From Eledone cirrhosa (lineage: Eukaryota): a DNA stretch of 64,000 bases. Positions within the stretch are counted from its first letter, which is position 1. Each line of letters starts with the position of its first letter. Position numbers and translations under genes: made by a program. The stretch spans positions 12,028,001 to 12,092,000 of the forward strand of contig OZ024745.1 in the NCBI GenBank assembly GCA_964016885.1. Reading direction: 5' to 3'. This document shows, in pieces, positions 11,008-59,745 of the stretch. The notes beneath the pieces are model-generated. The model was not told the origin of the DNA. It did no database searches and was given only the letters and a program-made list of their open reading frames with translations.

Positions 11008-11456
11008 TTTTGAGTATATGTTGGTTGTATACCAACACCTCAGTATGCAGGCTGGAGCACTCGACGAAGTGCGCAGGCTAGTTTGATTACTCCGGAGTAA
11101 TGTAAAATAAAGTTAAATAAAAAGTCAAATGTTTAAAATTTAGCTTCGTTTATTACTGCTATATATATTTCAGTGACAGCCATCTTTGGCTGTGACCTCT
11201 TCAGGCAGTCCGAATTAGTGTGGTAGAGACAATATGATTCCAGTTCCTCAGTGAAATAACAACCCAACCAGGAACTGGGCATATCAGAGTATTGACAATA
11301 TTATACACCTCAACAACATATGTACTTGTCTATACCACACTAATTCGGACTGCCTGAAGAGGTCACAGCCAAAGATGGCTGTCACTGAAATATATATAGC
11401 AGTAATAAACGAAGCTAAATTTTAAACATTTGACTTTTTATTTAACTTTATTTTAT
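11008..11456. mobile_element. Fold-back element family A (Penelope-like pLTR-type) in (GA)n/(TA)n
   Basis: Inverted arms ~11103-11231 and ~11327-11455; longer left extension; hammerhead in each arm. Confidence 0.85.
11349..11403 (+). ncRNA. Type I hammerhead ribozyme, family A (mirror copy on minus strand 11155-11209)
   Basis: actgc CTGAAGA ggtcacagcc-aaagat-ggctgtcact GAAA tatata TA gcagt: stem I actgc/gcagt, palindromic stem III ATATATAT, AUA site, followed by AATAAA. Confidence 0.85.
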
Positions 11457-11836
11457 ATATATATATACCAATAAGGAAACATATTACATTAACAAATTCC
11501 AACTTCTACTTAATGCTCTAAAAATCGAACCAATCTAAAACTGCAGCAAACAATCAAACATTTACAACAGTTACCTCCCTCACCCACTACCTAATCCTTT
11601 TTCTTAAATAATTAAATATCATCCAGCAAGAATTGCTTCCCCCTGCATATTAACTCTCTAAAAAGGGAAATCATATCAAACCTCAGTCCACCATTTGCCT
11701 CCATCATGGAATCATGAATCAACTAAGCACTCTTGCTATATTAACACATTTTGATCTGCTTAACTTCAATAACTGTGCCTGTAAATGACATTATTTTTTC
11801 TTCCACATTGACTTTTTACGTTCTACATTATTGTCC

Positions 11837-12006
11837 GTTTTTTTTCTTTTTTCTTTCTTTCTTTTTTCTTTTTTTCTTTTTTCTTTTTTCTTTTTTCTTT
11901 TTTCTTTTTTCTTTTTTCTTTTTTCTTTTTTCTTTTTTCTTTTTTCTTTTTTCTTTTTTCTTTTTTCTTTTTTCTTTTTTCTTTTTTTTTTTTCTTTTTT
12001 CTTTTC
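11837..12006. repeat. (CTTTTT/CTTTTTT)n polypyrimidine repeat
   Basis: Direct inspection. Confidence 0.95.
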
Positions 12007-12488
12007 ACTTCATAAACCTTGTTTGTAAATAACATTATTCTTTCTGCACCTTCTGTTTAACACGTGCGACACCACACTAATACATTTCACTATCATTTGA
12101 TAATGCATAAAAATGCTGAAAGCGGTAATAGACAATTATTAAATATATAAATAGATAAATAAATGCCATTGTTAAATATTAAATAAATCAACTAATACCT
12201 TAACACTTCACACAAAGTAAAACATTTCGTTTTAATCATTTTCTAACCCAGAAAAGAGAGAGAGAGAAACAAAAATAACGAAAAAATTTATTTTTATTCC
12301 TAATAATCGTCTCTTTCTCCCTGTTTTCATATATATATATATATATATATATATATATATATATATATATATATATATATATATATATATACCTCCCAAA
12401 GTATAACAATATCGGTTTCAACACACGTTTTCAGATAAAGAATCTTGCTAAACAAATTCAGAAACGAAATATATATATATATATATAT

Positions 12489-57300: not shown

Positions 57301-58687
57301 CAGTGTAATGTATAGTTAAACTGTAATGTTCTGACGAGTGTATACAGTGTAATGTATAGTTAAACTGTAATGTTCTCACGAGTGTATACAGTGTAATGTA
57401 TAGTTAAACTGTAATGTTCTGACGAGTATATACAGTGTAATGTATAGTTAAACTGTAATGTTCTGACGAGTATATACAGTGTAATGTATAGTTAAACTGT
57501 AACGTTCTGACGAGTGTATACAGTGTAATGTATAGTTAAACTGTAACGTTCTGACGAGTGTATACAGTGTAATGTATAGTTAAACTGTAATGTTCTGACG
57601 AGTAATACAGTGTAATGTATAGTTAAACTGTAATGTTCTGACGAGTATATACAGTGTAATGTATAGTTAAACTGTAATGTTCTGACGAGTAATACAGTGT
57701 ATTGTATAGTTAAACTGTAATGTTCTGACGAGTATATACAGTGTAATGTATAGTTAAACTGTAACGTACTGACGAGTGTATACAGTGTAATGTATAGTTA
57801 AACTGTAACGTTCTGACGAGTATATACAGTGTAATGTATAGTTAAACTGTAATGTTCTGACGAGTGTATACAGTGTAATGTATAGTTAAACTGTAATGTT
57901 CTGACGAGTGTATACAGTGTAATGTATAGTTAAACTGTAATGTTCTCACGAGTGTATACAGTGTAATGTATAGTTAAACTGTAATGTTCTGACGAGTATA
58001 TACAGTGTAATGTATAGTTAAACTGTAATGTTCTGACGAGTATATACAGTGTAATGTATAGTTAAACTGTAATGTTCTGACGAGTGTATACAGTGTAATG
58101 TATAGTTAAACTGTAATGTTCTGACGAGTATATACAGTGTAATGTATAGTTAAACTGTAATGTTCTGACGAGTGTATACAGTGTAATGTATAGTTAAACT
58201 GTAATCTTCTGACGAGTAATACAGTGTAATGTATAGTTAAACTGTAATGTTCTGACGAGTATATACAGTGTAATGTATAGTTAAACTGTAACGTTCTGAC
58301 GAGTGTATACAGTGTAATGTATAGTTAAACTGTAACGTTCTGACGAGTGTATACAGTGTAATGTATAGTTAAACTGTAACGTTCTGACGAGTATATACAG
58401 TGTAATGTATAGTTAAACTGTAATGTTCTGACGAGTATATACAGTGTAATGTATAGTTAAACTGTAATGTTCTGACGAGTATATACAGTGTAATGTATAG
58501 TTAAACTGTAACGTTCTGACGAGTATATACAGTGTAATGTATAGTTAAACTGTAATGTTCTGACGAGTATATACAGTGTAATGTATAGTTAAACTGTAAT
58601 GTTCTGACGAGTATATACAGTGTAATGTATAGTTAAACTGTAATGTTCTGACGAGTATATACAGTGCAATGTATAGTTAAACTGTAA
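54381..58687. repeat. 44-bp satellite, ~98 copies (4.3 kb)
   Basis: Unit ttctgacgagt(a/g)tatacagtgtaatgtatagttaaactgtaa(t/c)g. Confidence 0.98.
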
Positions 58688-59055
58688 ACATCGAGGAAGT
58701 AGTGATGTTCTGCGTCAGCAAAAAGCAATACAGACAATTGCTTATGTTAAATGACTTGAGGAAGAAGAAGACTAACGTTTTGGACATTTTTCTTTCTTCA
58801 GAGAAAGGAAAACACACACAAACACACACATGTATACATATATGTATATGTGTATGAATATATATATATATATATATATATATATATATATATATATATG
58901 TAGTGGCACACCCATAAATAAACGAACACACGCACATATATACATATTTATATATTCATATATATATGTATATATATATATATATATATATATATATATA
59001 TATATATATATATATATATATATATATATATATATATATATATATATATATATAA

Positions 59056-59745
59056 ATCTACAACAAATTTACGGTAGTGTCTAATCCGTATGAAGAACTC
59101 AATGTAATCATGAAAAGAGAAGATGCATTCAAAAACTTATTTCGGTGAAAAATAAACGGAAAACAGAGTCAAGATAAATTAATAAAATAATGAATAAACA
59201 AAGAAACAGTTCCTTATATTAAAAAAATTCATAATTTTACGATCGTTTCTAGGATATATATGTGTGAGAGTTGGTATGCATATTCTATAGATCTATGTAC
59301 AATATTTATACAAACTATCAGAGGGAATATACATACCTACACATATATATGCTGTCTAATTCATCATTTTACGATCGTTTCTAGGATATATATGTGTTAG
59401 AGTTGGTATGCATATTCTATAGATCTATGTACAATATTTATACAAACTATCAGAGGGAATATACATACCTACACATATATATGCTGTCTAATTCATCATT
59501 TTACGATCGTTTCTAGGATATATATGTGTTAGAGTTGGTATGCATATTCTATAGATCTATGTACAATATTTATATAAACTATCAGAGGGAATATACATAC
59601 CTAGTTTGTATAAATATTGTACATAGATCTATAGAATATGCATACCAACTCTAACACATATATATCCTAGAAACGATCGTAAAATGATGAATTTTTTTAA
59701 TATAAGGAACTGTTTCTTTGTTTATTCATTATTTTATTAATTTAT
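59056..59745. mobile_element. Fold-back element family K with internal 132-bp tandem repeats and half-hammerhead
   Basis: acgatcgtttc at 59239, 59371 and 59503; inverted arm 59602-59745 with GAAAcgatcgTA at 59670-59681; flanked by (TA)n. Confidence 0.85.

Follow-up and report, generated by a model that had tools for sequence, protein, structure and literature searches.

The window analysed here, a stretch of 64,000 nucleotides (nt) of Eledone cirrhosa contig OZ024745.1 (positions 12,028,001 to 12,092,000), is AT-rich, microsatellite-dense animal-type DNA holding a series of short fold-back elements. These are 5′-truncated, inverted 3′ remnants of Penelope-like elements (PLEs) sitting in (TA)n, and they share near one end a small bulged hairpin that also accompanies the open reading frames (ORFs) of Hydra-clade PLEs in other genomes and may set the start of reverse transcription. 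In the window families, a type I hammerhead ribozyme or its 3′ half is combined with an inverted, shortened arm and a longer arm bearing a 60–120 nt extension. Copies end at two sites, a near and a far terminus, with the hairpin (hairpin 1) between them. The elements are as follows, in window coordinates.

11008..11453, minus strand: family A, fold-back PLE remnant; hammerhead core 11168-11204(-), 11354-11390(+)
11056..11098, minus strand: family A bulged hairpin, ACTC-CG..CG-TC-GAGT-GCT; an alternative fold is predicted to be more stable
12489..12808, minus strand: family B copy 1 (B1), fold-back; hammerhead 12602-12638(-)
12527..12550, minus strand: B1 bulged hairpin, with one G-U pair
38473..38783, plus strand: family B copy 2 (B2), fold-back; hairpin 38723-38746
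24207..24533, both strands: family C copy 1 (C1), perfect mirror around (TA)n; hairpin ~24469-24490(+), its mirror ~24251-24272(-)
45181..45342, plus strand: family C copy 2; hairpin ~45280-45302
32647..32765, both strands: family C copy 3 (C3); antisense arm cut inside the hairpin (motif 32689-32696, minus strand), sense hammerhead arm stopping at the near terminus
31711..31912, plus strand: family D copy 1; near terminus ~31834, hairpin 31841-31867, far terminus 31912
32186..32404, plus strand: family D copy 2; hairpin 32333-32359
50893..51093, minus strand: family D copy 3; undamaged motif at 50939-50946, but a deletion has impaired the 5′ strand (helix 5 of 7)
10731..10863, minus strand: family D copy 4 (D4), overlooked in the initial annotation; hairpin 10770-10796
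43877..44317, minus strand: family E, fold-back; hairpin 43919-43971, whose inner stem-loop is long
51690..51807, plus strand: family E single arm (E2), stopping close to the near terminus; no tail, no motif
46787..48157, plus strand: family F, nested fold-back; hairpin 48090-48128, with a different fold predicted to be more stable
51185..51523, minus strand: family G, fold-back; motif 51240-51247, degenerate stem (5.5 of 7)
59055..59742, minus strand: family H, fold-back containing tandem units of 132 nt; its hairpin, ~59094-59169, has a 57-nt loop
49925..49952, minus strand: orphan hairpin O, with two G-U pairs

The hammerhead core is full in families A, B, C and F, a variant in E and G, and reduced to its 3′ half in D and H. 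The variant cores (CTGCGGA and CTGCTGA, A6 being replaced by C) lie at 44150-44260 and 51380-51465 and have long stem II regions. Family H alone among the window families carries hammerhead units in tandem, about three 132-nt units with the hammerhead 3′ half at 59226-59603, a retrozyme-like arrangement. Inverted shortened copies with a tail on one arm were found throughout, apart from the full mirror C1 and the single arms D4 and E2; the C1 mirror is 100% perfect around its (TA)n centre, so that it either was duplicated very recently or is an artefact of the assembly. Insertion into (TA)n holds for the window families, the long arms of A and G abutting (TC)n beside compound arrays. Because this anatomy matches that published for PLEs, namely inverted 5′-truncated copies, a tail at one end and (TA)n targets in the accessible parts of PMC8557442 and opposite-strand hammerhead pairs in those of PMC4209133, we read the elements as PLE remnants. 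An Rfam scan of the window returned no hammerhead and no family near its gathering score among the best 150 of 342 matches, which were low-complexity matches of the microRNA type.

The initial annotation had drawn attention to an 8-mer, THGAGNNC, near the 3′ terminus of eight families that it called unrelated, and had interpreted it as a conserved cis signal. Every 8-mer that it cited is present on the strand and at the position given, in the hammerhead-sense orientation and 30–55 nt away from the point where the longer arm meets its microsatellite; at site 45294, the arm end at 45342 abuts TATA and no long array. Four further sites, 10771(-), 50939(-), 32689(-) and 49926(-), had been overlooked. 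Across 138 complex microsatellite flanks the motif is positionally enriched, with 16 matches in the 30–59 nt bin (copies of one family and one mirror copy among them) as opposed to 1–5 in each of the other nine 30-nt bins. When 10 families were delimited by hammerhead and asymmetric fold-back, the motif playing no part in the delimitation, it was found in 8 of these 10 and in 2 of 96 other flanks (Fisher p=6e-9, a value inflated because the motif was picked post hoc). A de novo search with a Gibbs sampler over the terminal 90 nt of the 10 families recovered YRTHGAGNNCT unaided at 11.8–12.05 bits, a score matched by none of 135 control sets given equal effort (mean 9.57, maximum 10.64 bits) and, in an earlier run with weaker null effort, by none of 394. 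The 8-mer is therefore real, but its true extent is longer than had been described. Although no two families align over their full length, they are not entirely without resemblance: hammerhead sequence is common to A and F, and 15–17 nt around the motif recur in C, D and G.

The two families lacking the motif, I (2839-3904) and M (32850-33249), are hammerhead fold-backs with short tails of 35–40 nt. The large fold-back I has a TTGACAA (U3-A8) variant of the hammerhead core and a 38-nt tail, and probably belongs to another PLE clade; M likewise has no hairpin. Nor is the hairpin present in fold-backs J (43474-43858, in which no hammerhead was found, with a 39-nt tail) and K (44620-45016, with a hammerhead and no tail).

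As a held-out set, contigs of prokaryote genomes were scanned with a reverse transcriptase (RT) pattern that is independent of the motif, which led to animal-type contigs in three assemblies (G001–G003). Genome-wide in G001, the bare motif is no commoner than its reversed control (332 versus 340 occurrences) and is thus informative only in context. Combined with (TA)6, it gave 5 matches in viral contigs, none of them in a PLE-like context by eye, and 112 loci in metagenomes, one with an upstream hammerhead call; about 4 of the latter match a hammerhead's own stem and the remainder, which look like chance, served as a null set for helix scoring. Four metagenome contigs (L042, L066, L076, L116) carry hammerhead elements adjoining (TA)n whose own stem I reads GAGTACT, unrelated to the tail hairpin.

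The motif proved to form one strand, the 3′ one, of a stem-loop with a bulge; its partner strand, RCTC, lies upstream at a distance. From 5′ to 3′, the hairpin comprises RCTC, an inner stem of at least two pairs, a loop of 3–57 nt, the other inner strand, a 2-nt TH bulge, GAGY and an RCT at the 3′ foot; the bulge (UH) and the 3′ RCU are conserved though unpaired. The 7-pair helix across the bulge reaches at least 6.5 of 7 in seven of the eight window families (G fails) and 7 of 7 at 9 of 11 held-out sites. By comparison, a score of 6.5 or more is reached by only 3 of 101 chance motif matches in public contigs and by none of 26 other window matches. Sites 52226, 2657 and 52458 contain the 8-mer with a helix of only 5.5–6 of 7 and were rejected as chance matches. 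Bulges of 0, 1, 3 or 4 nt fail. When only the outer stem is used to set the register, Watson-Crick pairing at the inner two positions holds in 33 of 38 cells for the nearest register and 30 of 38 for the farthest (permutation p<1e-4 in both), and these inner pairs are of four types (TA/TA, TG/CA, CT/AG, CG/CG). The outer stem covaries between GCTC/GAGC and ACTC/GAGT, GCAC/GTGC being seen at the held-out locus L118, and the pairs that are not Watson-Crick are G-U in the sense strand (B1, B2, C1 and O). For a covariance model trained on 8 non-window sequences, the 7 best window matches (E<0.05) are sites of families D, C and B, and the long-loop hairpins of A, E, F and H were missed; in the alignment fitted to it, 98% of cells are paired, with 15 double-sided changes, against 16–57% in slid controls, figures that lean toward the model used. 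The strict hairpin descriptor has nine window matches, eight at family sites and one at orphan O, which is probably a decayed D/G-like fragment. It also matched L210(-) and L214(+), long internal hairpins (GCTT..GAGC-GCT) of an unexplained repeat with no upstream hammerhead. A MAFFT alignment of the mixed hairpins was out of register and was set aside. The minimum-energy fold recovers the hairpin in ~14 of 19 sequences; it misses those of A, F and G and the first hairpin of L118, while in B it finds the outer stem only. Taken as a whole, the pairing pattern suggests a structure that would fold in the RNA. The conserved cis signal of the initial annotation is supported, with RT recognition the best of the options it offered, but it is a bulged stem-loop and not a linear 8-mer.

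Beyond the window, the hairpin is tied to one PLE clade. By eye, and as far as the accessible part of the PMC8557442 supplement goes, the motif is carried by four of the six new Hydra consensi published there (Hydra-2_Amil, Hydra-2_Ajap, Hydra-1_Ajap and Hydra-1_Crog, the last at 10 of 11); in the same material, Hydra-1_Ajap has it twice at the 5′ end ahead of the ORF, Hydra-1_Amil has TTGAGTA only, and Hydra-1_Obim ends 36 nt past the ribozyme. Looked for throughout the supplement, where line breaks hide some occurrences, six 9-mer variants turned up 5 times, 3 of them at Hydra termini and 2 inside other ORFs (Naiad and Chlamys files). In the held-out set, translations of loci L118-L124, L139 and L154 show RWK, DKT, a CxCX5C linker and, at the C terminus, a GIY-YIG domain without CCHH in ~700 amino acids, with a weak GIY-YIG match in one of five proteins; assignment to Hydra is by these protein motifs rather than by a tree. 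Hammerheads downstream of Hydra ORF ends number 21, of which 8 are followed, 58–74 nt past the cleavage site, by the motif, 10 run into a microsatellite, (TA)n in most cases, 30–57 nt past cleavage, that is, at the near terminus, and the remaining 3 are cut or truncated (L129, among these, has the hairpin). Among the 3′ ends of Neptune, Nematis and other endonuclease-positive PLEs, none of 22 carries the hairpin; 23 rows had been picked, one of which was set aside for its Hydra-like protein and 6.0 match. Since the hairpin is tied to the Hydra clade, the window families appear to be distant kin rather than unrelated, and the ORF-less families would themselves be members of it. The clade is large, as indicated by the 853 proteins that matched one N-terminal query; scans of viral contigs with the Hydra RT pattern and proteins found nothing. 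A loose hammerhead pattern applied to G001 and G003 was dropped as too noisy. The animal-type contigs in the prokaryote assemblies G001, G002 (C27) and G003 are full of PLEs (for example, L118-L124 and L153-L217), and at L118 bacterial-looking genes directly adjoin Hydra copies, which suggests contamination or chimeric assembly.

The two termini stand in a regular relation to the hairpins. The near junction lies 5–12 nt 5′ of hairpin 1 in 14 of 15 comparisons, usually with 1–7 nt of TA microhomology, and the distance from hammerhead to junction is variable (~30–57 nt). All four recovered Hydra ORF starts are preceded by a hairpin ending 43–62 nt before the conserved KNIP codons; two leader hairpins stand 65–68 nt apart in L122, L118 and L139, the first being imperfect in L118 and L139, and in L154 far-terminus sequence is followed by hairpin 2. 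The far junction falls 8 and 7 nt before hairpin 2 in the two measurable cases, so that the distance from a terminus to the hairpin after it is much alike at the two ends. For family D, 22,104 reads from one reduced-representation run, with contigs from three other runs, show one dominant internal junction, at which (TA)n is joined behind 31834 in 3395 reads, and depth that runs on into (TA)n after 31912. Within 31854-31867, among the variants listed (all but 4), a single position varies (31860, T>C, ~15%, the H position).

We propose, with a probability of roughly 0.6, that the Hydra protein binds the bulged hairpin and starts complementary DNA (cDNA) about 7 nt upstream, that two hairpins provide two starts, and that head-to-head joining of the products yields the fold-backs. 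In order, the RNA would hold the ORF end, the hammerhead, the near start site, ~7 nt, hairpin 1, 30–55 nt, the far start site, ~7 nt, hairpin 2 and the ORF start. The element's RT/GIY-YIG protein would bind the bulged hairpin, and target-primed reverse transcription would begin at a fixed 5–12 nt upstream, primed from nicked (TA)n and often at a short UA match. A cDNA begun at the far site would carry hairpin 1 as its "tail", one begun at the near site would lack it, and a far-start and a near-start cDNA joined head to head would give an asymmetric fold-back. The accessible text of PMC11167929 describes for an anole PLE both the cutting of both target strands and RT starts at two internal RNA sites that bound the tail. 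The further step, that the duplicated hairpin acts as a molecular ruler from which the Hydra RT always starts ~7 nt upstream, the PLE tail being the spacing between two hairpins, is tentative, and we rate it at slightly less than an even chance. A predicted structure of a Hydra protein (pLDDT 91.7) has TERT and DRT2 as its best matches among solved structures, which fits the kinship already known; the putative RNA binding lies outside what this match shows.

Several observations weigh against this proposal. No PLE ORF was found in the window by Pfam on 86 of 128 candidate frames and on 7 larger ORFs, which gave RTs of LINE type only, or by a six-frame motif scan; the absence of an RT and GIY-YIG ORF is expected of truncated copies, but it leaves families A, E, F, G and H linked to Hydra only through hairpin and anatomy. 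The hairpins are of ordinary stability (z -1.7 to +1.1), the conserved pairs of A and F have predicted probabilities of only 0.02–0.04, and G and L118 hairpin 1 are degenerate. The sequences being related, the covariation counts overstate the number of independent events; most held-out families come from one genome (G001), and some of the 22 non-Hydra ends are from families counted more than once or from copies with short ends. One near junction lies 0 nt from the hairpin (C3 against C1, which are different subfamilies), and the far-end spacing rests on two cases. Finally, the motif of family D is not clearly more conserved than other stretches of the tail, and because other invariant runs of 8–10 nt exist there, its conservation in D is weak on its own.

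Among the alternatives, the one that survives best, though with a small share of the probability, is that the hairpins serve the translation or stability of a ribozyme-cleaved, uncapped RNA, being akin to an internal ribosome entry site or protective, and that the nearby termini merely reflect flanking UA-rich single-stranded linkers. Hairpin 2 does end ~10–25 nt ahead of the likely start codon in L122, L154 and L118, hammerhead cleavage would give a 5′-OH leader containing both hairpins, and most junctions show 1–7 nt of TA microhomology. Yet the ~7 nt spacing of both termini 5′ of a hairpin is left unexplained, and by eye ~10 other TA steps in the D arm are absent from the best-supported junctions. 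Only a little less probable is an element acting as DNA, either a site or extruded hairpin for the GIY-YIG endonuclease or a promoter element, that steers re-insertion into existing copies. According to the accessible text of PMC11167929, which cites the work, the endonuclease of Drosophila virilis Penelope required tail DNA for recognition; the core AG-NN-CT is near-palindromic, and internal promoters in PLE pLTRs are mentioned in the accessible part of PMC8557442. However, the observed targets are (TA)n, and the compensatory changes across loops of 3–57 nt, together with the G-U pairs in the sense strand, argue for single-strand folding and not for a duplex site.

The same G-U pairs would become A-C mismatches if, as antisense templating proposed for PLEs would have it (PMC3846280, available in part), the template were antisense RNA and the hairpin a stop signal resembling the template boundary element of telomerase, with the termini as RT stop sites. 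We consider this improbable even though the antisense strand folds about equally well and TERT is the best solved match of the Hydra protein model, for, in the accessible text of PMC11167929, initiation by the anole PLE in vitro is internal and takes place on sense RNA. That the motif is a neutral relic of common ancestry or of coding sequence (RTH-GAG can be read as Ile/Val-Glu, and some flanking letters are common to families), or else a chance pattern, is very improbable and already largely refuted, since its position is upstream of where the ORF starts, a stop comes after it in G and O, it keeps its pairing through compensatory changes amid unalignable flanks, and it is set apart from chance by the Gibbs controls and by helix scoring against chance matches. 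Splice-site, Pol III box and coding-relic ideas were considered and dropped, as was a partnership with the R4/Dong-like elements of the window, whose 3′ ends at 16007 and 53716 have no hairpin.

The first of these elements, at 16007-20305(-) between (ATT)n arrays, is a near full-length LINE, which we take to be R4/Dong-like, with an RT (RVT_1, E 9e-29) and a restriction-like endonuclease end; the second, at 53227-53716(+), is the 3′ fragment of an R4-like element flanked by (TA)n/(TACA)n. A dispersed SINE-like family of ~190 nt has at least seven copies (1957-2145, 8024-8206, 20126-20315, 23228-23434, 41292-41464, 43067-43258 and 44414-44633). Satellite arrays have units of 44 nt (54382-58687, with a related single copy near 52597-52693), 98 nt (61764-64000), 29 nt (41568-42121), 33 nt (2112-2540) and 15 nt (21044-21707). 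At 50051-50860, a MITE-like inverted repeat of ~200–250 nt holds a nested insert and no called hammerhead.

A hairpin that covaries and keeps a fixed distance to the two termini is an exact candidate for what determines the internal RT start and the optional tail of PLEs, for which one in vitro PLE study located the starts and not the signal. The protein concerned is a compact (~700 amino acids) RT-endonuclease and a relative of telomerase. The hairpin also offers a protein-free marker for sorting ORF-less fold-back repeats in (TA)n-rich animal genomes, repeats whose scale is apparent from family D alone, with its 22,104 reads in one run. If the Hydra protein does start cDNA from the hairpin, the sister group of telomerase would have its first defined RNA start signal; it would be portable to any RNA for (TA)n insertion, and the ruler would suffice to explain the mass amplification of non-autonomous fold-backs.

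RNAs that position an RT are known from several systems: the telomerase template boundary element, hepatitis B epsilon, and the non-coding RNAs of retrons and of DRT2 fix where copying starts or stops. The likeness to the present hairpin, which is known from sequence, is one of analogy, a small structured RNA that is, or here would be, bound by the RT setting the start or stop of copying. With the minimal hammerheads of PLEs and animal non-LTR retrozymes, as far as the accessible texts describe them (PMC4209133, PMC7229834, bioRxiv 10.64898/2026.07.22.740005), the window elements share the type I hammerhead, the palindromic stem III and opposite-strand pairs 100–700 bp apart. Non-LTR retrozymes are marked by tandem hammerhead units of 150–400 nt and by circular RNA; family H has units of 132 nt in tandem. 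Unlike retrozymes, most window elements are single fold-back insertions with no tandem arrays, and the hairpin is separate from and downstream of the ribozyme. The Anolis Poseidon PLE (PAc; Frangieh et al. 2024, PMC11167929, seen in part) resembles them in that two internal RT starts bound the genomic tail and both strands are cut and extended. Its printed RNA, by eye, has no RCTC/GAGY bulged hairpin in the tail, and here, unlike in PAc, the start sites lie in a non-coding leader. Closest are the Hydra-clade PLEs (Craig et al. 2021, PMC8557442), which in the accessible part of that account share with the window elements the (TA)n target, a canonical type I hammerhead close to the 3′ end and inverted truncated copies. 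Of their new published consensi, 4 of 6 have the motif, and it also occurs after Hydra-type ORFs in G001–G003. Their published tails are 30–40 nt long compared with ~60–120 nt in the window, and the same part of the account covers protein motifs and hammerheads, with no bulged hairpin, hairpin duplication or terminus spacing. No account of the bulged hairpin was found in the literature searched, which reached few subscription papers or Repbase reports. Apparently, the hairpin is a real, hitherto undescribed cis-acting structure within a known clade of retroelements.

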